DNA from: Mayamaea pseudoterrestris
Lineage: Eukaryota
DNA length: 64,000 nucleotides
NCBI GenBank assembly: GCA_027923505.1
Contig: BROI01000010.1
Coordinates: 186,001-250,000 of the forward strand
Reading direction: 5' to 3'
Part shown: in pieces, positions 1,109 to 16,473 of the stretch
Layout: the number at the start of each line of letters is the position of its first letter
How positions within the stretch are numbered: position 1 is the first letter of the stretch
Translations under genes and position numbers: made by a program
Notes under the pieces: model-generated
Told to the model about the DNA's origin: nothing
The model's input: only the letters and a program-made list of their open reading frames with translations
Database searches by the model: none

Positions 1109-2519
1109 CTACAACGACTCCGAATAAATCAAAAGGGTTTCAATGGAGGCGGCGACGTCGGAATAGTGTTCCATCATTCCAACTTTCACCTGCCTACCTT
1201 TCGCCCGTTCCACTTTCCTCCATCTGTTGCTCTGCAAATCACGCTTCCTTGGCTCCGCGTCGTCTGCTTGCGCTGTCGATCCTGCGCAAGTGGATCTTTC
1301 AACAGAGCCAAACTCCGTTACGTCTAACCGCCGAGCTTGTAACTTCAGGACACTGCGCCTGTACTTCCATCTTGGCTTTGAGTCTTGGAAAGTCAGGACA
1401 CATAGATCGCCTTGCCCTGCCGTACTTTCAGGCTCGAACACTGGCCCACGGACGATTCCTCGTTTACTCGCATGATCCGACAAAACGACAGACGCACATG
1501 CAGCCCGAACGAGTCTCCAGTGCCAGCGGCAACAGGTGGCATCGCTCGCCTCGCTCACCCTTCACGCGCCCCTGCAATGCAAGTGTAAAATGGCGGTGTC
1601 GAGGATGTGACAAGCTTTCATCAAGATGAGCCATTGTTCCTTCAAGCTCAATCTTGGGTACTTCTTCTCCTCGCAGTCCACCTGCGAACCCCGCGAGAAG
1701 AAACCCCGCCAGCAGACACACATCAAGCTTCTCACTGACACTCGCTCCTATCCAGTCTCGCTCAAGCAACTCCTGCAGCTTCAACATCATATCGATTGTC
1801 ACCGCTCGATCGGGCTGCACGTTGTCACCCATGCGCTTGTGACACCCTTCCAGAAAGCGCTTGAACCAGTAGGAGTGCGTCGGGCTGTCGCTAAAGTGCT
1901 GTGCTCCTTGCATTCCCGTAATGGTCGTCAGAGTCACACCATCGGGCTTTGTCAATGCCACGTTGGTGAAATGGGTTCGCAAACGCCGCATTGTTCCAAA
2001 CTGGATAGTATCTGAGTTCTTTCCTTCATCCAAGGATCTGTGGAGCAAAGTTACCGCTTGAAACATGCCCCAGGTATCTCGCACTGAATACGGTTGCTTG
2101 TCCGCCTGCTCGGGCTCGCTGATGAATCCAAACGTCTTCATTGCCTTGGCTATATGATTTCGTTCTCGCCAATTTGATTCCACAGTGGATCGTTCTCTCG
2201 ACCAGAATGCATCTAGGATTGCTCGCCGTACTGCGGTAAGCAGTTCTTGATCCTCTCTCCTTTCCACCATGGGTTCACTACTCCTCATATTCCGAAAGTG
2301 ACAAAGATCACACTGAAAAGGGCACAGTAGATGATCCCCGCGCCTAGCCACTTGGAATCTCGCCGCTTCCTTCAACTCCTCGTCCTCAAACCCTCCTTCT
2401 TCGCCTGGAGATCGCTGCCTGGGGTACTGATCCGTGTCACTTGCCTCGTAGCATTGGAAATGCCACAGACCCTTTCAATCCGGCCATTGCTTTCGCTTGT
2501 AGCCAAAATTTGCGCACCT
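1109..2519 (-). pseudogene. Tyrosine recombinase of the YR element (disrupted as assembled)
   Basis: Contains the CPFQCDLCHF motif, box I GGLRGEEV and LQGRVKGE. The C-terminal NRWRKVE...MMEHYSD (catalytic Tyr) is in another frame (1109-1558). There is an in-frame TGA at 2475-2477. Confidence 0.85.
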
Positions 2520-3410
2520 GAGCCCCTCGCTCACCTTCAGCTCCTTCCCACACACCTGACAAATTGCGTTCAGTGTCTCGTGCCAGGTCCATTCGTCGTA
2601 CCTGCCATGGACTTGCCGGAAGCAAAGGGCAAACAAGGGCTAGTGTTAGCGATTCAAACATCTCCTCTCTCCAGAAGCTCGCTCCGATGGGAATGGTAAA
2701 CATCACATCGCTCGCTTTCCGCATCTGCCTCCTCCACCGACTCGTCATTAAGCTCGGCACCACAATGCAATGGAATACGTGTGGCCTGGCGTGCCAAGCC
2801 TCGCACAGTTGCTCCAGAGCTACATCACTCAAGGCGGGAGCTGGGAACCAGAACATGGGGCGCGTCTCTGTGTGAGCGCAGTCGAACCAATCCGCTTCCT
2901 TGAGGAACAACGCGTTCCTTGGACACCAGCTGCGGATCCACCTTTCAAGCTCGGGAGAGCGTTCCAAAGGAGACAAGTGTATCGGAACGAAATCCAGCAT
3001 CGACTCGCCCACAAGGACTCCGTTAGCTAAATCTCCCCGCGAGAGACCATCTGTCCCTTGAGCAATCATTCGCTTGCCGGAGCACCAAATAACGTGAAGA
3101 AAGATCTTGCCAATCATCTCGAGTGTTCGCAAGCGCAGGACCAGTTCAAAGAGCACTTTGGCTTTGCTTGTACCCTTGTAGAAGGCACGCTCAGTCACGA
3201 AGTTGTCCGTGAAAAGGAAGAACTCTGTTCCGGGCTGAATGGTTCCATTGGAGAGCCCCGACTCGATCCTCACCACAAAGTTGTTCAACTCTCGAAAGTT
3301 AGATGACTCGTTGCTCACGCGCTCTTCCCACACACCGTAGACGTATTGGATTACTTCATAGTCTCCCTTGTTGTCTGCTTCAGAGATCCCAAAGCCGCTC
3401 CCGGATGCAA
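2437..3410 (-). CDS. DIRS-type RNase H and C-terminal region of ORF2 (frameshifted from RT)
   Basis: Motifs ASGSGFG, SSNFREL, FLFTDN and HVIWCSGKRMIAQGTDGLSRG. Confidence 0.8.
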
Positions 3411-3499
3411 CTCTGGCGCTCTGGCTGGGGCGGACGCTCGCTAGCGGTGGAGTCGCATGGTTCGTTCAAGCAAGGCTTCCACATCTTCCGCCAGCCTAG

Positions 3500-4473
3500 C
3501 TACCACTCGCACCGAGGAGCGCCGTCGTCCTCGCCCGCAGGAGCTTCCGCGGCCTCCTGCTGCTCTTCCACTCGCTTGCTTCCTCCGTGCCGCCAGCCCT
3601 CTTCATCTCGGTTTCCCCGCCAACTGTCAAGCGTGAGGTGGATGCCTTTGAGGTAAGGTACCAAGGATCGGTAGGTTTGTCCCACGTAAACCAAAAAGCC
3701 GCGGATGCGCTCCAATTGCTTGAACTCAATCGCCTTGGGATCCTGGCTTAGCTGCTCCTCGATCCACGCGATCGCCGCTCTCGTCTTGCCCCATCTCTCC
3801 ACTGACACCGACACAAAGACTCCTTCCTCTGTGGTTGAAACCACAGATCCCGACCATGCGCCAGGTGTTTGACTCGGCGGCCTTCTCTTGCGCGCTGCAT
3901 CTTGTAGGCCATACCAGGAGGCCAGCTTTGCGATCCTACTGCCGCCCTGCCAAGCAAGCTCTTCCGTTGGTGCTGTCGTTCGTGAGTCATCAACAAACAA
4001 GTGCATATCTACTGCCACTCGACCATCCTTTCGGCGCTTGGAGATCCATGGTTGCGCGGGGTCATAGGCGAGCATCCCCGGGACGTTCAGCTCAACACTG
4101 ACCCAGTGGAAAGCGTTGGAGTCCGCGGACGCTTCCGCGGATCCTCGCCCCAGTACCAACCCCTTGAATTGCAGTGCTCCTTGGACGGCTTGATAGGGTG
4201 AAGGCCCCAGTCCCATAGTGGGTCGCGTGAAATGCTCCCATATCCGCCCTCCCCTGATGCTTCGCTCATCTGGACAAAGGCCAGTCAGGTCGATCCCAGT
4301 GTAGGGCCGGAGCTCTTCGTGCAGCCAAAAGTTGTAGAACATCTCGCCAAAATCATTGTCCGCGCAATAGTATTGCGGTGCAACTGTTCGTACCATCTGA
4401 CTGACAGTGGGGAGCGCAAACCATGGAGCAAACAAAACCTCGTTCAATCCACTCGCTGTCGCATCGAAAACCA
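3500..4473 (-). CDS. Reverse transcriptase core of the YR element, part downstream of the copia insertion
   Basis: Motifs VFDATASGLN, DNDFGEMFYNF, MGLGPSPY, FVDD and YLKGIHLTLDSWR. Confidence 0.88.
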
Positions 4474-4868
4474 TGACAAGTCGCAGAGCGGCGAAGTCAA
4501 GAGCCCGAACCCTAATTAGCTTGTGTCGAGTCCGCAGCTGTCGTATGTGACATGTGAATGAAGAAAGTGCGCAACCGTCGTGTGGATGCGTTGTATGAAT
4601 GGAACGACCAGTTACGACTGATGTAATGTGATTGAAAGAAACGGATTGATCGGATGATCTTCCGAGTGGTCGATGTAGCGATGTAGCGATAAGCTCACAA
4701 TATAGAACTACTAGTTTGCGACGAGAGTGCAGTCGTATTCGTGTAGTGGCGAGCGCAAGACTATTCGACGAGCCATCTCCATCAAGAGCTGTACAGACCG
4801 TGGCCAAGGACCCTGTATCGGAGCTTTTTGGAGGTAAGACGTTGACTGCGAAATCGTCAACGGTGTTA
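4474..4868 (+). repeat. 5' LTR (395 bp)
   Basis: TGACA...TGTTA; differs from the 3' LTR by 2 substitutions and an 8-bp tandem duplication (cgatgtag). Confidence 0.95.
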
Positions 4869-4965
4869 GATTAACATTTCAGTGCTTTGAGAGCGAGAAC
4901 GAGCGAGGGAGCTATCGTGACACATTCGTCTGCAGCGAGTCCGATTCCTCTGATCAACCTCCACC

Positions 4966-6600
4966 ATGACGACGATTGATGTAACGACCTACAAGCGTGC
5001 CGTCGGTAAAGTCTTCGATATTCCGTGGCTCGCAGCGTCCGCAGCTTGGGACCCAAACGACCCTACCGCAGTATGCTTCGAATCTGAGGAACTCACGACT
5101 GCGGAGGCGATGGCCGAGTTGTCGGAACAAGACGTGACGAACATTAAGAACCAGTACCAGTGGTCGACGATACGAACAAGCCGATTGCGCAAGCTCATGA
5201 GTTGGATTCACGAGCAACGTCGGACGACTGCGCTGGAAGACTTGGAGAAAGACCAGATTACGAGCCGAGACCTCCCAGTAGCACCGGGGTCACCAACCGC
5301 AGGCAACCGCAGTTTTGGAGACTTCAGCGTTATTGGAGGCAACGACACCACGACGAAGCGACACGACATCAAGCTGGATCTGAAGACCATGCTGGAGCTC
5401 AAGAACGATCGCAAGTTCTGCTCCTACTGGCGGGCCTTCAAGAACCGCATGCGAAGCGAGCGACTTGTGCACTTTTGGGACGGCGGAGTTCAAGGCACCA
5501 GCTGCACTCGAGCCAGAATTCGCCGAGTATCAGTATCAGTGTTCGAAGCTTGCAGCGGCTCGAGTATACCTGCAAGACTCCATGAGCAAGCTCATTGTCC
5601 ATCAAGCACTCGACAGCGCGAATGCCTCAGCGTGCATTGCAGAGTTGGAGGCTGACATTCCTCGATGGGATGGCGCGCAAGTTGGATCACGTACGGCGAA
5701 GACGAAGCGTAAACAATTCACCCTCGACGCGGGTTCACGTAGTCTCCCGTCAATTGGCTTATCCAGTGGTCCAGCAAGGAAGAGAACTTACAATGACCAC
5801 GCGAGGAAACCGAGCTGGCCCCAGCAAGCACGGCGTCAGATTTTGGAACGCGCGGTTTTCCGCCACCATGCCGGATATGGCGCGGCGGTGAACATGGCGC
5901 TGATCGAAGAGTCCAAGACCGGCAACCCGATGGTGCACACCCAGTTTTGGAACTCCTGAACGACGACGTCACGCCTCAATCTGACAATCGTCGTGGCATC
6001 AAGGAGACCGGAAGCGTCAGGGAAGGCTACCAATCTGAGCAGACCAAGAAAGAGAAGGAGAAGACGAAGAAGGCAAGTGCGAACACTTTTCCCAGTCTAC
6101 GTAAGTAGCAGCAACAATCAGCAGTCCAATCAGGGGTGGTGGTCATGGGCGACTTGAGACGGCGAGGGGCGGCGGCTGGCCGCGGTGGGAGAATACTTTC
6201 GTTCGTATGTTCGCAGCTATGCCGACACGAAGACGATGTTCCCAGCACGTAGAATGCGACGACATTCCATCAAACACGTGGCGACTCCTTACCCGCGACC
6301 AGCAACGCCATGAAGTGTTTGAACGCCGTGGTACGAGTCTAGCGGCCAGTGCTGCAGGTGGTTTGGCATCAGCAACACAGGCAGGCACCACGCAGTGACG
6401 ACGGAGTACAACACGCAACGCTAACGTCGCAGCGATACTTCATCAGCGGAAACGCACGGCGCGAGTGCGGCGACGAACGTGTGAACAACACTAGCCGTGG
6501 CTCAGCGATCCGGAAGTTCAGGTCCCAGACCAGCCCGACTACGACTTCGGGAGCGAATATCGCTCAGAGTCGCAAGTACAAAGTCGCGAGCATTGACTTG
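4966..6600 (+). pseudogene. copia gag, frameshifted
   Basis: Chain of partial ORFs (4966-5655, 5465-5959, 6207-6398, 6349-6609) at the gag position after the 5' LTR. Confidence 0.65.
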
Positions 6601-6619
6601 GATTCATGATTCGCCGTCG

Positions 6620-6990
6620 TCACACAGCCGTACTACCAGAATCAAAACCCAGCCGAGCGCATCATCGGGCGCGTAAAGGAAAGTCATGAACGACTTATGG
6701 ACCGAACGGGCACTCCGGCATGCTTCTGGCTACGCGCTTTACTCTTTCAGACCGAGATGTACCGTCATTTGTCGCATCCTGCCTTGAACGGCAAGTCTCC
6801 CCATCGAGTTTATCACTGGGCAAGTCCCGACGCCGGTATTTGCATTTTCGTTGGTTTGAAATTGTCAACTACTTTGTCAAGGATGTCGAGGCCCGAAGAC
6901 CCGCCAGCGCCGGCGTACTGGCTTGGTCCCAACACGACGTCGGAGACGACCTGACGTACTTCATCTGCGATTGCGAGACACCGAGATCAT
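6620..6990 (+). pseudogene. copia integrase core C-terminal fragment
   Basis: Motifs QPYYQNQNPAER, LMDRTGTPACFW, LNGKSP and YWLGP...VGDDLTYFI across shifting frames. Confidence 0.75.
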
Positions 6991-7271
6991 GACGCGATTG
7001 GTTTTCTTACCCGAAAACGACCCAAAATTTTGAACCTTCGGCGTACCGGCACCTGCTTCCCCAGTCATGAAAGAAGGGAGCCGCGTCTCTACACCGTACC
7101 TGGTCTAGGTGGCGAGATCCTTATGCCGGGAAATGATCAAGAAGAGTTACAGCCCGACAGCAGAGACGATGATTCTTTCATTCCTGGCGAAGACGATACC
7201 CCTTTGGTCGAGACGGTGGAATACCCGGAAGACAACGATATGACGACGGGAGGAAGATCCGAATCCTGCCG

Positions 7272-9640
7272 ATGACGACGACGAAGCGAAGAAGAAGAAC
7301 ATCAATCCGTGGCGCAAACTCCCGATATGCACCCGATGAACTTATCGGCAAGTCGTTTCTCATGAAGGGGACTGACGGGCAAGAAGTTCGAGCGACCGTC
7401 ATGAGCAAGCTAAACAACCACGACGCCCAGAACCATCAGAACATTAAAATGATGCTGAAGCTTGGTAACGGCGAAGCGGACGAAGTCATGTCGTATGTCG
7501 AGGTTTCCGATCTCTACGAGGCCGAAGTGAACCAAGACATGGCGAATCCTGAGCGTAAATGGTTCTTCAAGGAGATTCTAGACCATCAGGGTCCGCTGAC
7601 GAGCAAGTCGAAGAACTGGAAGCATTCCAAGTGGAACGTCCTTGTACAATGGGACGATGGATCCAAGACTTGGGAGCCTCTCAACGCGATGATCGAAAGC
7701 GACAAAGTATCAGTGGCAGCCTACGCGCAAAAGCATAATCTTCTCGACAAGGACGGATGGACATCGTTGAATCGATGGGCCCGGAACGCCAAGAAGGTTG
7801 CGCGCAAGGTGGCGACCGCCCGAATGGAGCAGCAGAAGAACGGACCGCGCTACAAGTTTGGAGTCCAAGTACCCCGAGATTGGAAGGAAGCGCGGCGTTT
7901 GCAGGAAGCTGCAGGGCACACGAAGTGGACGGATGCGGAAGGCGTGGAGCTTGCGAACCTGGACGAGTACGAGACGTTTCAAGATCTTGGTCCGAGTTCC
8001 ACCACAACACCACCAACTGGTTACCAAAAGATCCGAGTCCATTTTGTGTACGATGTCAAGCACGATTTGCGATACAAGGCACGTCTCGTTGCAGGCGGCC
8101 ACATGACGAAAGACAACAACGATGCCTACTCCAGTGTTATCTCATTGAAGGCAATGCGTCTAGCTCTCGTCATTGGAGAAGCGAACGGCAAGAAGTGCAT
8201 GGTCGGTGACATTGGGAATGCTTATCTCGAAGCGTTCACCAAGGAGAAGGTATACTTCGTTGGAGGCCCCGAGTTCGGGGAGCGCGAAGGACATATACTG
8301 GTCATCGTCAAGGCTTTGTACGGATTGCGAACGAGCGGAGCACGATTTCACGAACGCTTAGCCGACGCCCTACTTGCGGAAGGGTGGAAGCCGTCCTATT
8401 GCGATTCCGATCTGTGGATCAAGGACGCCGGCGACAGCTACGACTACCTCTGTGTATGGGTCGACGATCTGTTAAATATTTCAGACGATCCAGCAGCGTT
8501 CTTCAAGATGCTAGAGGAGAAGTACAAGTTTAAGCTTAAAGGTGTTGGACATCCCGAGTATCATCTCGGCGGTGACTTTGGACGAGACCCTGACGGAACT
8601 CTTTACTGGTCGGCCAAGACCTACGTTGCGAAACTCTTGGCGCAGTACGAGCGTTTGTTTGAAGGTCCTCCGAAGAAGTACTCATCACCAATCGACAAAG
8701 ACGATCATCCAGAACTTGACCAAAGCGAGCTACTGAACGACCAAGAGAAGAAGATTTACCAGTCTCTAGTCGGAGCACTTCAGTGGGCAATTACTTTGGG
8801 TCGATTTGACATTGCCGTAGCAGTTGTGAGTCTGTCGCGATTCCGTGTGGAGCCGCGCAAGGGACACCTGCAGCGGGTGAAGCGAGTCTGTGGATATTTG
8901 CGAGAATTACCGGACGCAGCAATCCGTTTCCGTACGAAGTGGCCAGCCAACGAGGAGCACTTCGGCACCATGGAGGAACAAGATTGGGAGCGCAGCGTTT
9001 TGGGAAGGACGGAGTTGATGAGATGTTGGACGTCTACCCACCGCCAAAGGGTGTGACTGTACGAACATCAACTTTCGAGGATGCGTGTCTCATGCATTGC
9101 ATGGTGACAGGCAAGTCATTGGAAGGAGTTTTGTCATTTGTCAACCAGACGCCTGTCGACTGGCATTGCAAACTCCAGGCTACAGTCGAGACTGCGACCT
9201 TCGGATCGGAATTCGGCGTAGCAAAGAGTGGAACAGATATCAGCATTTCTCTACGCGCGTCGCTCATGGCTATGGGCGTACCATTGGAGAGGTCTGCCTG
9301 GATGTACGGAGACAACCAAGCAGTGATTACACAATCTACAATCCCGAGTTCGACATTGTCCAAGCGACACAATGCGTTGGCCTACCATCGTGTTCGTTGG
9401 GCAGTTGCTGCGGGAATTATCAAGTTTGTGAAGATTGACGGAAAGGAGAACATTGCAGACGTACTGACGAAGTACCTGCCGTACTGTGATGCGATGCCAT
9501 TGCTCAAGCCAGTATTGTTTTGGCGCGGCGATACATCGTATGCGATTGTGAAGGACAAGAATGCGGCTACGACGAGCAGCGTACCCGAGGGGAGTGACAA
9601 GTCGCAGAGCGGCAAAGTCAAGAGCCCGAACCCTAATTAG
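7272..9640 (+). CDS. copia pol: chromo-like segment, RT (RVT_2) and RNase H; one frameshift near 9000
   Basis: Motifs YKARLVAGGH, DIGNAYL, KALYGLRTSG and WVDD. The RNase H motifs TVETATFGSEF, GDNQAV and ENIADVLTK are in frame 8939-9640, and the stop lies inside the 3' LTR. Confidence 0.92.
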
Positions 9641-9981
9641 CTTGTGTCAAGTCCGCAGCTGTCGTATGTGACATGTGAATGAAGAAAGTGCGCAACCGTC
9701 GTGTGGATGCGTTGTATGAATGGAACGACCAGTTACGACTGATGTAATGTGATTGAAAGAAACGGATTGATCGGATGATCTTCCGAGTGGTCGATGTAGC
9801 GATAAGCTCACAATATAGAACTACTAGTTTGCGACGAGAGTGCAGTCGTATTCGTGTAGTGGCGAGCGCAAGACTATTCGACGAGCCATCTCCATCAAGA
9901 GCTGTACAGACCGTGGCCAAGGACCCTGTATCGGAGCTTTTTGGAGGTAAGACGTTGACTGCGAAATCGTCAACGGTGTTA
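9595..9981 (+). repeat. 3' LTR (387 bp)
   Basis: Matches 4474-4868 and is directly preceded by the PPT. Confidence 0.95.
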
Positions 9982-11496
9982 AACCAATCGGATGTCGGAC
10001 TCTCCTTTAGAAACGGGAAACATGTTGATCAACGAGCGCACTTCTCCCACCGCGATGTACTTTCTGGCCCGGAGCTTGTTCACTTTGGCGACAACCAGGG
10101 CCAACTCCTCCGCATCCTTTGGTACTCGCTGAGGTTTCTTGTTGGCTGGTGGTTTATCGATAAACCTCGGCGGCAGGCCATCACGGATCGTCTTCTGAAA
10201 GGCTGCCGGCCAGCGCCAGAAGAAAGGAGCGGACCCGCCTTTCCACTCCCACCAATCGGATTTGAGAGCGTGTCCAATGGCGGCTAATCCTGCCGAGATT
10301 GCTTGGCGAGGAACGAAGCGGCCCGCTGTCCGCTCGACGCACACCCACCTCCAGAAGCTTCGTGACAGATTTCGCACCCATCGCGCGTGCAGTCTCCCTC
10401 TGAATCGCTCCAACACCTGGTCTATTCGCTTTACCTCCTCCTCGCTCGCTCCCTTGTCTAGCAAGTGCAGTCGCTCATTCCAAAGCCAGCGTGGCACTTC
10501 CGCGTCGTCCGCCTTCGTCGCTTTGGCGTCTCGACCCGCGTTCTCCTCATGCTTGGACTTCAACCCGGGCTGCGAGTCGCCTGCTTGCTCTTTAATGACG
10601 CTTCTCGCAGGCTCGCCAGTCGCCAACGCATCGCTGAAGTCAGTCAAGACGCTGAGCGCGTGCACTCGAATCTTGAAGGGCAATCGCACTTCCTCCACAA
10701 GGCGCTCAACCAGCCGAGGGGGACACGACTTCGTGATGGTCGCAGGCAAGTCCCACACCAGATTTACCTCCTTTGAACTGAGTTTTCTTCGGACGAAGCC
10801 TGTGCGAGAGAATACCGATGGTACCACGTAGCGGTCTCCCAGTTGGCGAAGGTCTACCAATACGTCTTCCGCGTTCGTTGGAGGGGAGCAGGGCACGCCG
10901 TTTGCCGTCTTGTCAATAATGGAAGCCAAGTACATGCGCACACCAACCTCCTGAGGAAGTTTGGCAAGTGGGGCGTCGCTCCTTGTCGCCAAGTGGACGA
11001 CGAACTCGCCGTTGGTGACGCCTCCCAACTCGGAGTGCCTAATAAGATGACTCGTCCTAATCCAACCTAGGGGTACATTGCCACGAGAGTAGGAACCAAA
11101 CCAGATAACTAATTCCACTCCCGGGAGCTTCCATACCGCATGCGAAGCTCCAGGTCTTATGTTATCAAAGCACACGACATCCGCCTCCTGCTGTCTCGCT
11201 AGCCAATCCTCCAGGCGCTCTGCTCTATCCCACCACTTCACCTGCGCCAGCTCCATTCCTCCAAACGCGTCCTCGCGCCCACCTTCAACTCCTGCTATCC
11301 ACACCACCTCCGCTCCGCCTGAGCCGGCCACCCATCCCCAGAAAGGAAAAGTCTTGCAAACTATTCCCATTCGCCGCCGACCTCTTGCTAGTCGGCGCGT
11401 TACGCCTTCCACATACTCCGCCACACCTTGTCGCGCCTCGACTCCCTTCCGCCGCCGCCCCTCGCCAGAGCGGGAGGCAACCGACGGCTCGCGCCG
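9982..11496 (-). CDS. YR element ORF2 5' part (methyltransferase-like region plus RT N-terminus), interrupted by copia
   Basis: Open from the ORF1 stop to the insertion. Contains KATKADDAEVP, WWEWKGGSAPFFWRWP and FPVSKGESDIRLV, and rejoins FDATASGLN in frame when the copia and one TSD copy are removed. Confidence 0.88.
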
Positions 11497-11507
11497 TCAG
11501 TTGCCCC
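11474..11507 (-). promoter_or_regulatory. RNA hairpin containing the ORF1 UGA stop (candidate readthrough signal)
   Basis: GGGGCAACUGACGGC-GCGA-GCCGUCGGUUGCCUC forms a 15-bp stem with two G-U pairs and a GNRA loop. Confidence 0.7.
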
Positions 11508-13713
11508 GAGCTTGTCCTCTCTCAGCCAGCTTCTTGGCCTCGTTGGCTGTCTTGACAGCAAACTGACAGTCCTTCTCCAGCTTCTGCGTCGCTTCCGCAA
11601 ACTTGACGACGCTCACCCGGTTTTCAATGAGGTGAATCGTCATGACGCTTGACACCGACGGGTGGTTGCGGAAATCCTTCTCCAAGTAACCCTGGGCGAT
11701 CTGATGCGACTGCATCATACTCCACAAGTAACACGCCACATGGTTTGAGCGTTCATCTTCGTCGGCCTCATAGTTGACCAGCGCTGCCTCGGCCCGCACC
11801 TTGTGAAAGTCGGTCCACATTTGGTGAATCATTCCTGCCAACAATTCCCAGCTTTCCTTGTTCTCTCCCATCTCGCTCATGAAGTTGAGCTTGAACGTGA
11901 AGAACTGCGTAAGGCACGAGTCGGCTTTGGCGAGCATCTCTTGGGCGAGACGCTTTGCTCCTCCTGACATATCTGACGAGCGGATGTGTCCATTGAGGGC
12001 CTTGGTGGTCTGGCTGATGCGCTCAGTCAATCTGATACGCTTTGACATGATGCGCTGCGACGTCCCGTTCCAAGCTTCCCATGAGGTTAGACCAGGAAGG
12101 AGATGCTTGTGGCTTCCCAGCGCGCTCTGCTCTTTCTCCGTCCCGCCGTAGACGAGCGGAAGGGGCAGATTGAGTGACGCGATGATCGTGGCTTGGAAGC
12201 TGCTAGCGAAACCAGCTTTCTTGGCGTTGGCCACATTCCCAAGCACTGACGTTGGGTCGGCGTTGCTGGCGTAGGCCAGTTGCAACAGGGAGAAGGGGTC
12301 GATGAGAAGAGTCATGTGCTTGGCCGCAATCTTGAGGGCGTCGACCACTTCGAGCGTCTTGAGCAGGGACGCGTAAGTGATGTTGTCGAACACGACTTGG
12401 GTGCTTGATCCTGCTTCTTCACAATGCTCCACGCGAGCCTTCAATGACGCGAGTTCGTCAAGCGCGCTTCCTCCAGCGGCCGATCCAATGCCAGCGTCGA
12501 GCAGCTCTCTCACGTCGCCCATGATCTTGGAGGTTGCGGCGTTGACTGCAGCTGAGACTTGGGCTGAAATCGACATTCCGCTCGCCAAAGCTGCGGCTGG
12601 CGATGGCCCAACGCGCAGCTGCTCCTTAACGTACTCGCCACACATGTTGAGCGTTTCCATGACTCCTCCATCCTGCAGCAGAAGGATTACCTGCTCGCCA
12701 ATGGACTGCTTCGCCGCGTTGGACGCGAAGGGCTGCGTCTCAAACTTCGACTGCGCTTGCTTGAGCGAGTCGATTTCCTTTTGCATGGCCATCATGCGCT
12801 CTTCATCACGGATTCCTGTCGCGGATTGGCGACCAACCATAGTCCACAAGCTGGCTTCTACATCGTCACTGCGCGAACCGACTAAGCGCTCCAAGCGCGT
12901 GACCCTGACGTCGAATCCGTCGAGCTCATCGTCAATCGCAACCTTGTTGAGACGCACTTGCTTGGCTTGGTCTTGCGCCGCCTCCTGGAGTTGTCGAACT
13001 CCTTCGGCGAGGATAGGGACAGCTTGTTCGACTTTGCTCTTTAGCGTTGCGTCCGAAACCTTGCCCGTCGGAAAGGTCACACTGGCGACGTCAACCCAAT
13101 CGCTTGGCGAGTCGGAGTCTTCCATCTTCAATGGGCTTCGGCGAGCTGCACGTGGCGTGGCCATCGCAAACTGGGCAGAGGCGATCGCTGCGCTCATCAC
13201 TTGATCGCTTTGACTATGAGGATCCCGCAATGCGGTGAAGAACATCTGCCAGTCGACGACAGAGCGCTGGGTGGAGAGCATGGTGGCCCGGGCTTCTGGT
13301 CCGATGTCTTCGACACGGACCCACTGGGTGGTGAAGGCGGTGGGGGAGGAGCCTGTAGGAGAGGTGATGAAAAGGCAGGCGGTGTCACTGTCTTCAAAGC
13401 GAAACTTGTTCTTCTCATGGGCTTTCACGACGCAAGTGTCCGTCGCGCAACAGAAACGAGTATCACCCACACGGCCGCCGCACACGCCTTCCGCCAATCC
13501 ATCTTGGTTCAACCAAACTTCAATCAAACTGACTCCACTCGCCGAGGGAGACACAACCCCCCCGGATCCTTTTTGCTTACCTTGTCGCGCCGACTCCGAC
13601 AGGTCCTCGGCATCACGAGAAAACTGGGACTCGAGGATGCGCTGAGTCGAGCCCGCCGCAGGAGGGGCGGCCATGAGCGCCTTGAGCTTGTCAACGGCGC
13701 TGGGAGACGACAT
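11497..13713 (-). CDS. YR element ORF1 (gag-like, 738 aa)
   Basis: Intact ATG-started ORF just after repeat A1, with an N-terminal Cys/His cluster and coiled-coil-like segments. Confidence 0.85.
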   Translation of the reverse strand: MSSPSAVDKLKALMAAPPAAGSTQRILESQFSRDAEDLSESARQGKQKGSGGVVSPSASGVSLIEVWLNQDGLAEGVCGGRVGDTRFCCATDTCVVKAHEKNKFRFEDSDTACLFITSPTGSSPTAFTTQWVRVEDIGPEARATMLSTQRSVVDWQMFFTALRDPHSQSDQVMSAAIASAQFAMATPRAARRSPLKMEDSDSPSDWVDVASVTFPTGKVSDATLKSKVEQAVPILAEGVRQLQEAAQDQAKQVRLNKVAIDDELDGFDVRVTRLERLVGSRSDDVEASLWTMVGRQSATGIRDEERMMAMQKEIDSLKQAQSKFETQPFASNAAKQSIGEQVILLLQDGGVMETLNMCGEYVKEQLRVGPSPAAALASGMSISAQVSAAVNAATSKIMGDVRELLDAGIGSAAGGSALDELASLKARVEHCEEAGSSTQVVFDNITYASLLKTLEVVDALKIAAKHMTLLIDPFSLLQLAYASNADPTSVLGNVANAKKAGFASSFQATIIASLNLPLPLVYGGTEKEQSALGSHKHLLPGLTSWEAWNGTSQRIMSKRIRLTERISQTTKALNGHIRSSDMSGGAKRLAQEMLAKADSCLTQFFTFKLNFMSEMGENKESWELLAGMIHQMWTDFHKVRAEAALVNYEADEDERSNHVACYLWSMMQSHQIAQGYLEKDFRNHPSVSSVMTIHLIENRVSVVKFAEATQKLEKDCQFAVKTANEAKKLAERGQARGN

Positions 13714-13782: not shown

Positions 13783-14025
13783 TTAAACAAGTAAAGCCTT
13801 TATGCTGCTCCCAAGAGAGATCTCTTTTGGTTCCTGGGTCGACAACGTTCGAGCCTTCCTTGCAACAACTGATCGTTTCTCGTCTCCTTGCAAATTGGAT
13901 GGCCTCAATTGCCAATGCCATCAATTTGCTCCAGATTGCAAGTCCGTTGGTAATCGAGTGGTAGCCCTTTCAATCCGTCTGTCCAGTGTTCGTTCCATAC
14001 CAGCTTGGCTTGTGTGCTTGTCGTG
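13783..14025. repeat. Split direct repeat A1 (element 5' end)
   Basis: Identical to 288-530. Confidence 0.97.
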
Positions 14026-14185: not shown

Positions 14186-15898
14186 TCATATTGCCGTGGT
14201 GGCCCCAACAAAGTACCGCTGCGCCGTTGTATGTATCAGACTCGTCGACCAAAAGGGACTTTCAGTTTCGGTTGCATCCTCTTCAGTGATGCTTGTTTCA
14301 TTTGTTGTTGTTTTGATTTCATGTTCGTTGACGCTCGTCCCAATAGCTACTTTGCGCCATTGCTCGCTCATCGCTCGCTGCTCCGCCCGCAGCGCGAGCG
14401 CATTCCCCAGCGACCATTCCGCCTCTTTGCCGTCCACCAAGTAGGTAAAGGTAATTTCGCGACTCGATGAGTCAAACCCAAAGCCATCCTTCAATAGCGT
14501 CACCAAATAAACACTCTCCAGGCACCGGTGCGGCAGTATATCGGCGCGCGTGTATTGATGCGCGTCATGCTGCACCAGTTCCAAGTCGTTGGTCCAAGAC
14601 CGACTGCACAATCCGTCCAATGCGTCGGCAAGCTCCTGCATGGACGGGTTTGGCCACGACTCGTTCAATATAGCATGCGCCTGCAAATTGTTGGTGGCCA
14701 ATTCGCGCAAACAGTCTAATGCGAAAAAGTATAGCGACATGGCCAAGAACTTGTTGCCGCGTACCGGCGGATGCGGAATGCCACCAACATGCGTGCCAAG
14801 CAAGTCGAACCGATCCGTTTCGTCGGCGTGGGAAACGAGTCGACGAACCTGCTTGACGCACGCGTTTGCGTTTCCAGTTCCAACGAGCGTGTAGTTTCGA
14901 TGCACTTGGCGATGATTCACAAAGGCGCATGGATTGTCGATTGTAAAGGTAGATGATTGCGACACTGCTGCTACTATTTCACGTTCATGCTCATGAATCC
15001 ACGTGTCAAAGAGCCGCTCCCGAAACTGGTCCACGCCGTAGCCAAGGTACGAGGTGGCAAAAAAGTCGTTGGCGTGAAACTGCGCAGCCGGCGGTTCGTC
15101 GTCATCACCAACAGCACTGTCATCTTGTTGCATCGGCAGAAAGACAATCTGCGTCGAGCTCCCACCCATGTCGAGCGCCCCAATCGGTCGTTGGCTGCTG
15201 TAAACATGATGGGCGTCTCGTTGATGTTGCTTGGTTTGTCGAACAAACTCTAAATGCACATTCATGCTGCCCTCCAAATAATTGGCCGCCAACAATCCGT
15301 AGTAGCCTTCAAGTTTACCGGATAGTGTTGAAATGGTGAAGCGCCTAAAGGGATTCTGTTGCGATGCGTCGAGTCCTTGCACCATACGTTCGTAGACCAT
15401 TTGCTGCTCGCGAACAGAATACAGTCGCATGCCGGCCGTGGCTTGGTACAAGACTGGTGTGGATGCGTGAAACTGAGGTGAAATAATGCTTGCCGCATAT
15501 TGGAGACAAGGCAGTATGTGATTTGCCAGTGCCGCCGATGCGTTTGAAACTGTTGCATCATCATGATCATTGTTTTCATTTTCGTGAGCCGCAAAGTCCG
15601 ACAGTGCCTCCGTGGTGCGCATGGTGCCGCGACACGCGACGGTTTCCATGTCGTCATCGTTACTGACAAACTCGAAAATATGCAAACGACTTCCCGTCGA
15701 GCCGCCGTCAATGACAATGATAAAAGGAGAATGCTGATGATTGTCGTTGGAGGGAGATTTCGTGACAGTTGTTGCATTGTGACTCACGGACTGCACCGAT
15801 GCAGTTGCATGCAACGCTTTGACATTGCGCAGTAGAAAGAGTAGACACTGCAGCATCTGCAGCAGCAGTAGGCATCGACTTGTAGTGGTAGTCATCAT
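14186..15898 (-). CDS. GDA1/CD39 family apyrase (NTPDase) with signal peptide
   Basis: Apyrase conserved regions DGGSTGSR, ATAGMR, EGYYG, DMGGSSTQ and WSLG; hydrophobic N-terminus. Confidence 0.93.
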   Translation of the reverse strand: MMTTTTSRCLLLLQMLQCLLFLLRNVKALHATASVQSVSHNATTVTKSPSNDNHQHSPFIIVIDGGSTGSRLHIFEFVSNDDDMETVACRGTMRTTEALSDFAAHENENNDHDDATVSNASAALANHILPCLQYAASIISPQFHASTPVLYQATAGMRLYSVREQQMVYERMVQGLDASQQNPFRRFTISTLSGKLEGYYGLLAANYLEGSMNVHLEFVRQTKQHQRDAHHVYSSQRPIGALDMGGSSTQIVFLPMQQDDSAVGDDDEPPAAQFHANDFFATSYLGYGVDQFRERLFDTWIHEHEREIVAAVSQSSTFTIDNPCAFVNHRQVHRNYTLVGTGNANACVKQVRRLVSHADETDRFDLLGTHVGGIPHPPVRGNKFLAMSLYFFALDCLRELATNNLQAHAILNESWPNPSMQELADALDGLCSRSWTNDLELVQHDAHQYTRADILPHRCLESVYLVTLLKDGFGFDSSSREITFTYLVDGKEAEWSLGNALALRAEQRAMSEQWRKVAIGTSVNEHEIKTTTNETSITEEDATETESPFWSTSLIHTTAQRYFVGATTAI

Positions 15899-16473
15899 GT
15901 CGGCCAGCAATGACTACTGTATTGATTGACTGAAACGAATCTCTTGTTCAGCAGCGAGGACGAATCTGTGACAAAGCTTGGGAGTCGAATGGAACGAGCT
16001 GGTAGATGAAGCTCTCTCCTTCGTCCTTGATGACAAATAGTCACAACTCTCTATCTCTCTCGAGACTTCCTTTCTCTTGGGGAATCGCAAAACTTGATGG
16101 CTGCAAGTGATGCTCGAGAGACGTGAACTATCAGTCGAATGCGTTCCAAGTGTGATGTTGTGGACCAGCGCATCGGCCATTAAAATTTTGCAACGGCCTC
16201 CTTGGAATTCTGAGTGACGTGGCATTGTGACGTCACACAATTCGTCCGGCGTTCCGTCACATTTTCATTCACACATGGAACAAACGTGGAACGTGCGGCC
16301 TTCCGCTCTTCCCGCTTACAGTACCTCGAGTCACAGCATCTTCATCTTCGAGTCACAGGCGTGGGTCGACTCCACAATGACCGCGTGACGCGCCCGTGCC
16401 AAGCATTCCGCGAGAAGAATCAAATCGTGCTTTTGAACTTGTGATAAAAAATGGCAGCCGATTTACGATACTA

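Follow-up and report, generated by a model that had tools for sequence, protein, structure and literature searches.

What is the protein domain that stands ahead of the reverse transcriptase (RT) in a Ngaro-like retrotransposon of the diatom Mayamaea pseudoterrestris, and what could it be doing there? The element lies in a stretch of 64,000 nucleotides of assembly GCA_027923505.1 (contig BROI01000010.1, positions 186,001 to 250,000 of the forward strand), which we call the window and whose own numbering we use throughout. The second open reading frame (ORF) of the element, ORF2, is a minus-strand ORF at 9979-11424 with 481 codons. A first-pass annotation, made from the sequence alone, had proposed that residues 19-260 (10645-11370) have a degenerate cytosine-5 (C5) methyltransferase fold, inactive and kept either for nucleic-acid binding or for evasion of silencing. 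Our analysis leads us to put the odds a little better than even, at a probability of about 0.55, that the N-terminal region of about 245 residues is derived from a C5 methyltransferase, is catalytically dead, and is kept by selection as a non-catalytic nucleic-acid-binding module.

C5 methyltransferases are recognised by a set of ordered motifs: motif I is the FxGxG loop after strand 1 that is the S-adenosylmethionine (SAM) loop, motif IV carries the Pro-Cys nucleophile after strand 4, and motifs VI, VIII and IX have the signatures ENV, QxRxR and R-x-L-T-x-x-E...F-P respectively. The first-pass annotation had picked out five segments in the motif order of Dcm and the DNMT proteins, and all five are present in ORF2 in that order: GGAEVVWI at residues 36-43, EADVVCFD at 80-87, LGW at 119-121, IRHSELGGVTNGEFVVHLATR at 128-148 and RRKLSSKEVNLVWDLP at 212-227. 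On the letters alone this order does not go demonstrably beyond chance, and it is structure prediction that shows more than chance.

Two AlphaFold2 models bear on the fold. The first, of ORF2 residues 1-262 from an alignment of 17 sequences, has a mean predicted local distance difference test score (pLDDT) of 85.0 and a predicted template modelling score (pTM) of 0.84. Its strands and helices alternate as they do in class-I methyltransferases; after them come a beta hairpin, an insert of about 50 residues and, at the C-terminal end, four helices. Foldseek finds 155 matches for it in the PDB at E <= 1e-3, the best being M.HhaI (E 3.8e-9, TMq 0.60). Among the 39 matches listed of those 155 most are to M.HhaI, M.HaeIII, M.MpeI and DNMT1, DNMT2 and DNMT3, and a single one, to an O-methyltransferase aligned over 165 columns, plainly belongs to another class. 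VIA-align matches residues 15-262 of the model to 10-320 of the M.HhaI chain, with Z 16.7 and a root mean square deviation (rmsd) of 3.5 A over 232-235 of the 262 residues. A search made by means other than Foldseek, over 48,161 representative PDB chains, places C5 methyltransferases at all of ranks 1-19 (Z 15.8-10.8), with alignments that span essentially the whole model (starts at 5-17, end at 262). From rank 20 onward the matches are other Rossmann methyltransferases, which begin at Z 8.0 and of which most cover only residues ~14-150. The second model, of 481 residues from an alignment of full-length Pol proteins, has identical secondary-structure elements, plus a disordered linker at 266-309 and a helical region before the RT; its best Foldseek match is also M.HhaI (E 1.0e-8), followed by DNMT2 and DNMT3.

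The predicted models combine a Rossmann core with an insert at the target-recognition position and with helices at the position of motifs IX and X that return to the core. The gap in Z and in coverage over the 48,161 chains indicates that the likeness in the models is to the specific C5 methyltransferase architecture and not to a Rossmann fold in general. We are highly confident of the complete C5 methyltransferase fold predicted for the ORF2 N-terminus, and what had been seen by eye as a methyltransferase-like fold is well supported by the AlphaFold2 models with Foldseek, by VIA-align and by the search of 48,161 chains.

With the model in hand the segments can be placed. The domain covers residues 17-262 (10639-11376, on the minus strand, as are all ORF2 coordinates given here), as delimited by the model and its match to M.HhaI. 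The position of motif I falls to strand 1 and its loop, residues 17-31 (11332-11376, strand at 17-23), of which residues 20-31 (G-I-V-C-K-T-F-P-F-W-G-W) correspond to the motif itself. GGAEVVWI, which had been assigned to motifs I-II, lies on strand 2, so that the motif II part of the assignment is kept and the motif I part is lost. The other four assignments agree with the predicted structure. EADVVCFD is at the position of motif IV, with a predicted strand at 83-87, and begins the segment made up of strand 4 and its loop (residues 80-98, 11131-11187), which ends at W98 and has no Pro-Cys. Strand 5 (105-109) and its exit, residues 105-112 (11089-11112), are at the position of motif VI and have no ENV. 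LGW, proposed as motif VII, begins the predicted strand at 122-129, and the segment described as VIII-like forms a beta hairpin with the motif VIII turn (strands 122-129 and 140-147, with a helical turn at 130-133). The hairpin as a whole, residues 119-148 (10981-11070), carries H130-x-x-x-G134-G135-V-T137. Between strand 7 and the strand of motif IX is the insert of about 50 residues (149-197, 10834-10980), where C5 enzymes have their target-recognition domain. The proposed motif IX, residues 212-227 (10744-10791), has a predicted strand at 210-214 and a helix at 217-223, and is marked by R213, L215, S/T216, E219, D225 and P227; conservation and profile alignment point to the same segment. 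The last helix (250-261), at the position of motif X, lies in residues 249-262 (10639-10680) and has P249-x-K251 at its start.

The catalytic motifs are a different matter. We examined 171 aligned domains, the profile listing covering the best 150 of 1711 matches. FxGxG, the catalytic Pro-Cys and ENV had been noted as absent from the window's ORF2, and they are absent both there and across the relatives, with two qualifications. The first is that V-A-G-S-G-G at residues 32-37 fits a loose form of FxGxG; the pattern [FYLIV]xGxG occurs in only 3 of the 171, displaced toward strand 2, and these include the window's ORF2 and P0024, which is probably a database copy of the same ORF2. The second is a Pro-Cys dipeptide at 178-179, which is within the insert after strand 7 and not at motif IV. 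The suggestion that some relatives might retain the catalytic residues found little to sustain it for Pro-Cys, present in the motif IV segment of 1/171, and nothing for ENV, as an ENV-like triplet (E[NS][VIL]) is in 0/171; QxRxR is likewise in 0/171. Among the remaining ~1560 profile matches there may still be catalytic relatives.

In place of these motifs the family has residues of its own. The consensus of the motif I loop is W/F-P27-x-W29 instead of FxGxG (G20 82%, P27 84%, W29 94%), and after strand 2 position 47 is Glu in 20% and Asp in 18%, the conserved acidic residue being absent. In the motif IV region G88 (60%), P91 (64%) and W98 (77%) recur. At motif VI there is a basic stretch up to position 112, where the family has Arg in 74% and Lys in 11% and the window has Tyr. 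QxRxR is replaced by H130-x-x-x-G-G-V-T, in a motif VII-VIII hairpin with W121 at 83%, H130, G134 and G135 each at 99%, V136 at 78% and T137 at 80%. The insert has G176 and P182, both at 91%. The R-x-L-T-x-x-E...F-P pattern of motif IX is kept by the family (R213 97%, L215 88%, T/S216 75%, E219 98%, D225 96%, P227 79%). At the position of motif X there are P249 (98%) and K251 (87%). Conservation reaches at least 80% at 16 positions, and all of them are in the motif I, VII-VIII, insert, motif IX and motif X blocks; in the family alignment no Cys of the domain is invariant. The median net charge is +7 over 116 domains of the family, compared with +5 over 15 real enzymes, a positive charge that is compatible with nucleic-acid binding and yet does not discriminate. 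Trp makes up 3.5% of the domain and 1.2% of the real enzymes.

With regard to the extent of the family, the first 430 residues of ORF2 retrieve 22 proteins of 974-1431 residues (best E 3.8e-53, 34% identity, 96% coverage), and the aligned relatives are Pol proteins in which a shared N-terminal region is followed by RT and RNase H. A profile of the domain (the N-terminal 262 residues, 17 sequences) run against 1.84 billion sequences gives 1711 cluster representatives at E <= 1e-3, with 774 clusters at <= 1e-10 and 68 at <= 1e-30. Starting from the other end of Pol, a search with the RT and RNase H of the closest relative finds 466 proteins at E <= 1e-5. Among the 120 of these listed, the N-terminal domain is present in 81 of the 82 proteins with at least 1100 residues and in 10 of the 38 shorter ones, which are mostly truncated; the listed matches are all of the same family and none has a precomputed Pfam domain. 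Only two organisms, the diatoms Fragilariopsis cylindrus and Mayamaea pseudoterrestris, are named for members, and every source name is either "hypothetical protein" or generic RT wording. Within the 64-kb window tblastn finds a single copy of the domain, and no relative came up when metagenome contigs were scanned with ORF2 and with its closest relative as queries. The presence of the domain in 81 of the 82 full-length Pol proteins among the listed matches, together with its near-invariant residues, argues that selection has retained it as a constant component of Pol in a large family of diatom elements.

How did such a domain come to be there? We suggest that the Pol of a Ngaro-like element acquired a C5 methyltransferase domain, and that catalysis was then lost while the fold was kept. 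Descent from a real methyltransferase is what we infer in preference to convergence, which is unlikely given a collinear motif IX and a whole-domain Z of 16-17. With replacements at the SAM loop, the nucleophilic Cys, ENV and QxRxR alike, the domain would be unable to methylate. The best conserved positions are in the motif I loop and the motif VII-VIII hairpin, which border the active-site cleft in real enzymes, and also in the insert at the recognition position and in motifs IX-X, and for this reason the old substrate cleft may still hold a ligand, most likely nucleic acid. The ligand could be the RNA of the element, its cDNA or its target DNA, bound within the replication complex during reverse transcription and recombination.

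There are several points on the other side. No Pfam family is found in the window's ORF2 at E <= 1, and PF00145 finds none of 17 family members with the threshold relaxed to E <= 10; at E <= 0.1 it has no match in 14 full-length relatives either. A sequence profile search of the PDB gives just two matches, to a GntR regulator (E 0.11) and to an antibody chain (E 0.54), both at the level of chance, and a search of the ESM Atlas with the domain gave no usable match. With hhalign the 17-sequence profile against E. coli Dcm alone reaches a probability of 0.3%, the 171-sequence family profile against 80 Dcm orthologues 1.8% (P 0.027), and the same family profile against 6 phage enzymes and 9 Dcm sequences 8% (P 0.0043 over 32 columns), so that the probability is nowhere above 8%; global mode against the 15-enzyme mixed profile yields nothing. 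In all three runs the sole aligned stretch is motif IX, in a collinear position, a match that agrees with the structure and is insufficient by itself. At the sequence level the link to the C5 methyltransferases is near nil and not statistically solid. The first-pass annotation had staked its claim on profile or structural similarity to PF00145 or Rossmann-fold methyltransferases; the profile side has failed and the structural side, in the predicted model, has held (M.HhaI, Z 16.7), and as that similarity is strong the claim of a methyltransferase-like fold is not refuted.

The structural support in turn comes throughout from predicted models, and the motifs were mapped to residues by the order of secondary-structure elements and not by superposition. 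The P178-C179 dipeptide is not at motif IV, but its Cys, present in 52% of relatives, could conceivably be an unorthodox nucleophile. The domain is also the least conserved part of Pol, with a mean pairwise identity of 22% as against 46% for RT and 47% for RNase H, and among near-identical copies there are more amino-acid changes per site in the domain than in RT-RNase H in 5 of 6 clusters, on counts (3-35 pairwise differences summed over copy pairs) that are too few to interpret. Finally the window's own copy is broken, by the insertion of a Copia-type long terminal repeat (LTR) retrotransposon and by a break of frame.

There are other ways to account for a dead fold in this position. A bolder one, which we regard as doubtful, is that the methyltransferase pseudoenzyme of this diatom Ngaro-like clade counters silencing by host methylation, either by sequestering DNMT or its cofactors or by shielding cDNA in a cleft of the base-flipping type. 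Such a mimic of DNMT, encoded by a mobile element and directed against silencing, would be the first of its kind. In a still bolder variant the rebuilt H130/G-G-V-T cleft would carry out a new reaction on nucleic acid. In its narrower form, that of an anti-silencing decoy, the dead fold would mimic a host DNMT, much as DNMT3L partners DNMT3A, and bind DNMT, cofactors or fresh cDNA so that new copies escape methylation. Transposable elements are reported to be methylated in diatoms, with methylation there restricted to them (PMC3145265, PMC12344493), and active DNMTs are described as repeatedly captured by retrotransposons, DIRS-like elements included (PMC5890265), so that a link between such elements and methylation exists; a fold that is intact while catalysis is gone would also suit a decoy. 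However the domain is covalently part of Pol, being ahead of RT in 81 of 82 of the listed full-length proteins, for which a role in the replication complex is the better fit, and its conserved residues appear, in a placement made without coordinates, to be at the old substrate cleft and not on an obvious dimer surface. We think the decoy unlikely.

It is also unlikely that the domain is a protein scaffold, a structural or oligomerisation module of Pol that dimerises RT or docks ORF1 or the recombinase, with the old cleft empty. Many of the conserved residues are Trp, Gly or Pro (W29, W64, W98, W121, G134, G135, P182, P249), which are often structural, and the high Trp content could mean that the cofactor pocket has been filled. 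However the near-invariant polar residues H130, T137, R213, E219, D225 and K251 exceed what a scaffold needs, although R213 and E219 may be the structural pair of motif IX, and binding of nucleic acid in the old cleft remains the reading we prefer.

We consider it quite improbable that the domain is still an enzyme, with its cleft rebuilt around H130, G-G-V-T and basic residues for another reaction on nucleic acid or for non-canonical methylation. The most conserved residues of the family, H130, G134 and G135, are indeed on the hairpin that bears catalytic motif VIII in real enzymes, and Cys179 is found in about half of the family. Such an enzyme would have to do without the glycine-rich SAM loop and without the conserved acidic residue after strand 2, both of which are absent, and also without any invariant Cys and with ENV and QxRxR in none of the 171 domains.

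That the likeness is an artefact, or a generic Rossmann-like similarity with no specific relation to C5 methyltransferases, is very improbable: sequence methods give nothing significant and the models were built from only 17 sequences, but two models from different alignments agree, 19 C5 methyltransferases that match over the whole domain (Z 15.8-10.8) are set apart from all others (Z <= 8.0, first 130-150 residues), and the only hhalign match is to a collinear motif IX. A protease-like role, which the position of the domain might bring to mind as it is that of the protease in LTR elements, was rejected, the fold being that of a Rossmann methyltransferase.

In the case of the bacterial C5 enzymes, namely M.HhaI, M.HaeIII, M.MpeI and Dcm-like proteins, the likeness extends over the whole domain (Z 16.7-14.3, rmsd 3.5-4.3 A, 221-239 residues), and motif IX in the form R-x-L-(S/T)-x-x-E...P and a similar positive net charge are shared. 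The diatom domain differs from them in being without the SAM loop, Pro-Cys, ENV and QxRxR and in being missed by PF00145, and also in that its insert has only about 50 residues, it is rich in Trp, and it is fused ahead of an RT. By sequence and motifs it is outside PF00145, yet we infer from the models that it is a structural derivative of the PF00145 family. In the search of 48,161 chains the model is nearer to M.HhaI (Z 15.8) than to DNMT3A and DNMT3B (13.2 and 13.1), which is weak evidence on its origin.

DNMT3L offers another comparison. It is an inactive DNMT paralogue, a free host protein that partners DNMT3A, an active DNMT3. The likeness is in a C5 fold without catalytic residues, kept for a non-catalytic role, which for the diatom domain is the proposed one; the diatom domain differs in being part of a retrotransposon polyprotein and in keeping motifs IX-X.

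The classical accessory domain of DIRS elements is a Dam-like adenine methyltransferase. Such a domain was considered for the region after the RNase H of the window's element and rejected, as Pfam finds none there. In DIRS-order elements the Dam-like domain is reported to be of prokaryote type with its catalytic pocket preserved (bioRxiv 10.64898/2026.05.21.726589). Among elements with a C5 domain, SymbioDIRS-Dnmt3 of Symbiodinium is described as having a cytosine methyltransferase domain of the Dnmt3 group, detectable by Pfam, in the Pol ORF with the RT, with repeats in the order A-coding-B-A-B and the tyrosine recombinase in a separate ORF (PMC5890265). This repeat plan is shared by the window's element, which likewise has its C5 methyltransferase-type domain in the Pol ORF with the RT. 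However the diatom domain, unlike that of SymbioDIRS-Dnmt3, is invisible to PF00145 and has no catalytic motifs, whereas the catalytic domains of retrotransposon DNMTs are reported to carry out de novo CG methylation in yeast, the domain having Ka/Ks < 0.2 (PMC5890265). DNMTs are reported also from Gypsy, LINE and "EpiLTR" elements (PMC5890265; bioRxiv 10.64898/2026.05.21.726589; PMC12344493).

Ngaro elements, for example those of the stramenopile Cafeteria burkhardae, are described as A1-[ORFs]-B1A2B2, with a Gag-like ORF1, RT and RNase H in ORF2 and a tyrosine recombinase in ORF3 (PMC8547959). The word "methyltransferase" is nowhere in the main text of that paper, whereas the diatom ORF2 begins with such a domain. 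For Phaeodactylum, Table 2 of PMC5859163 lists 14 DIRS copies, with no domain analysis there. The 2018 screen is described as using profile searches, with hmmsearch and Pfam domain names (PMC5890265), and the 2026 work as a screen of adenine methyltransferase domains (bioRxiv 10.64898/2026.05.21.726589). In the openly licensed papers and preprints, supplements aside (for example the figures of PMC5890265), we found no dead C5-methyltransferase fold in DIRS or Ngaro elements of diatoms or other organisms.

The capture of active DNA methyltransferases by retrotransposons is a recent and much-discussed discovery, as presented in PMC5890265 and bioRxiv 10.64898/2026.05.21.726589. A screen with PF00145 would miss the diatom family, since none of the 17 members matches. 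If our reading is right, methyltransferase capture by DIRS-order elements would be wider than thought, a captured methyltransferase fold would be able to persist after catalysis is lost, and structure prediction would be a way to recover captures that are hidden from profiles. Diatoms are an ecologically dominant algal group, and the domain is constant in the Pol of one diatom clade. Cytosine methylation is how diatoms silence their transposable elements, and a dead DNMT borne by a transposon would therefore provide a direct handle on the interplay between element and host methylation.

The element itself is on the minus strand. At its 5' end is repeat A1 of 243 nucleotides (13783-14025), and at its 3' end is a block (1-989) made up of B1 (749-989), A2 (288-530) and B2 (1-241). 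A1 and A2 are 100% identical and B1 and B2 have 99% identity; B2 touches the edge of the window and may be cut. The resulting plan, A1-[ORFs]-B1A2B2 with split direct repeats, is that by which Ngaro elements are defined, and from its sequence we class the element as Ngaro-like, in the DIRS order, with the assignment of the recombinase ORF as a lead.

ORF1 (11497-13713, minus strand, 738 residues), taken from the ORF list, is in the position of Gag and has no Pfam family. It shares its frame with ORF2, from which it is separated by a single stop codon and 24 codons (11425-11499, minus strand), an arrangement in which read-through of the stop could yield a Gag-Pol fusion. Ahead of the first ATG of ORF2 (M19) the open frame has an Arg-rich stretch that resembles the N-terminal extensions of the relatives. 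A contig of 6083 bp from the public run X1 differs from ORF1 at 104 of 502 bases over 11520-12021 (~79% identity), and judged by these differences it seems to come from a diverged paralogous element in the same organism.

After the methyltransferase-like domain ORF2 continues with a low-confidence linker, residues 263-309 (10498-10638), with pLDDT below 50 for 266-309 in the 481-residue model. Residues 310-481 (9982-10497) are a helical pre-RT region and the first RT strands, as indicated by the model (helices over 312-453, then strands) and by the alignment. The helical region (residues 310-455) has conserved Trp-rich blocks, W-W-E-W and F-F-W-R-W-P, and no family assignment; its mean identity of 31% is above that of the methyltransferase-like domain.

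The stop codon that ends this first part of ORF2 comes from the LTR of the Copia-type retrotransposon, of about 5.5 kb, that is inserted in ORF2 on the plus strand (4474-9981) and is recognised by its repeats, its flanks and RVT_2. The Copia LTRs, of about 390 bp, are at 4474-4868 and 9595-9981, the target duplication AACCA is at 4469-4473 and 9982-9986, and a Copia ORF at 7272-9056 matches RVT_2 with E 4.4e-21. There are several one-base insertions or deletions inside the Copia relative to other copies. When the Copia and one copy of the duplication are removed in silico, the ORF2 frame stays open as far as 3500, where a stop ends it after 803 codons. The continuation (3500-4473, minus strand), open in this way, aligns with the RT of relatives of ~1200 residues. 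The RNase H and C-terminal part of Pol (2437-3333, minus strand) is in a different frame, and shows the conserved RNase H blocks when aligned. Neither the RT nor the RNase H piece of the window has a Pfam match; 16 relatives of ~1200 residues have conserved RT and RNase H blocks, with weak RVT_1 matches in 2 of 14. The ORF2 frame is thus broken between 3333 and 3500 in the window copy, and as the RNase H part lies in another frame this is a second defect of that copy.

Contigs of the public runs X1 and X2 join 4467 to 9981 with the Copia absent. This Copia-free state of the locus marks the insertion as recent or polymorphic, and an uninterrupted form of ORF2 exists, which is possibly intact. 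Within 2315-3765 these contigs differ from the window by 29 gap letters, and the changes cluster at 3440-3467, where the frame breaks. The window copy or the assembly may carry an insertion or deletion near 3440-3467 that other copies are without.

ORF3 (1464-2375, minus strand) is probably the N-terminal part of a tyrosine recombinase, an assignment that comes from language-model features. These resemble the NDC10_II, DUF3435, DUF3504, Phage_int_SAM and Phage_integrase clusters with scores of 0.93-0.97, and are to be read as a lead only; ORF3 has no Pfam match and no PDB sequence match. The C-terminal catalytic part (R...H-x-x-R...Y) was not located, there being two shorter ORFs downstream in other frames, and ORF3 may be truncated in the window copy. 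At its start, ahead of the recombinase-like part, is a Cys/His-rich stretch, C-P-F-Q-C-D-L-C-H.

An intron-less gene for a GDA1/CD39 nucleoside phosphatase (14186-15910, minus strand, Pfam E 2.8e-56) lies outside the element, with its end some 160 bp from A1.

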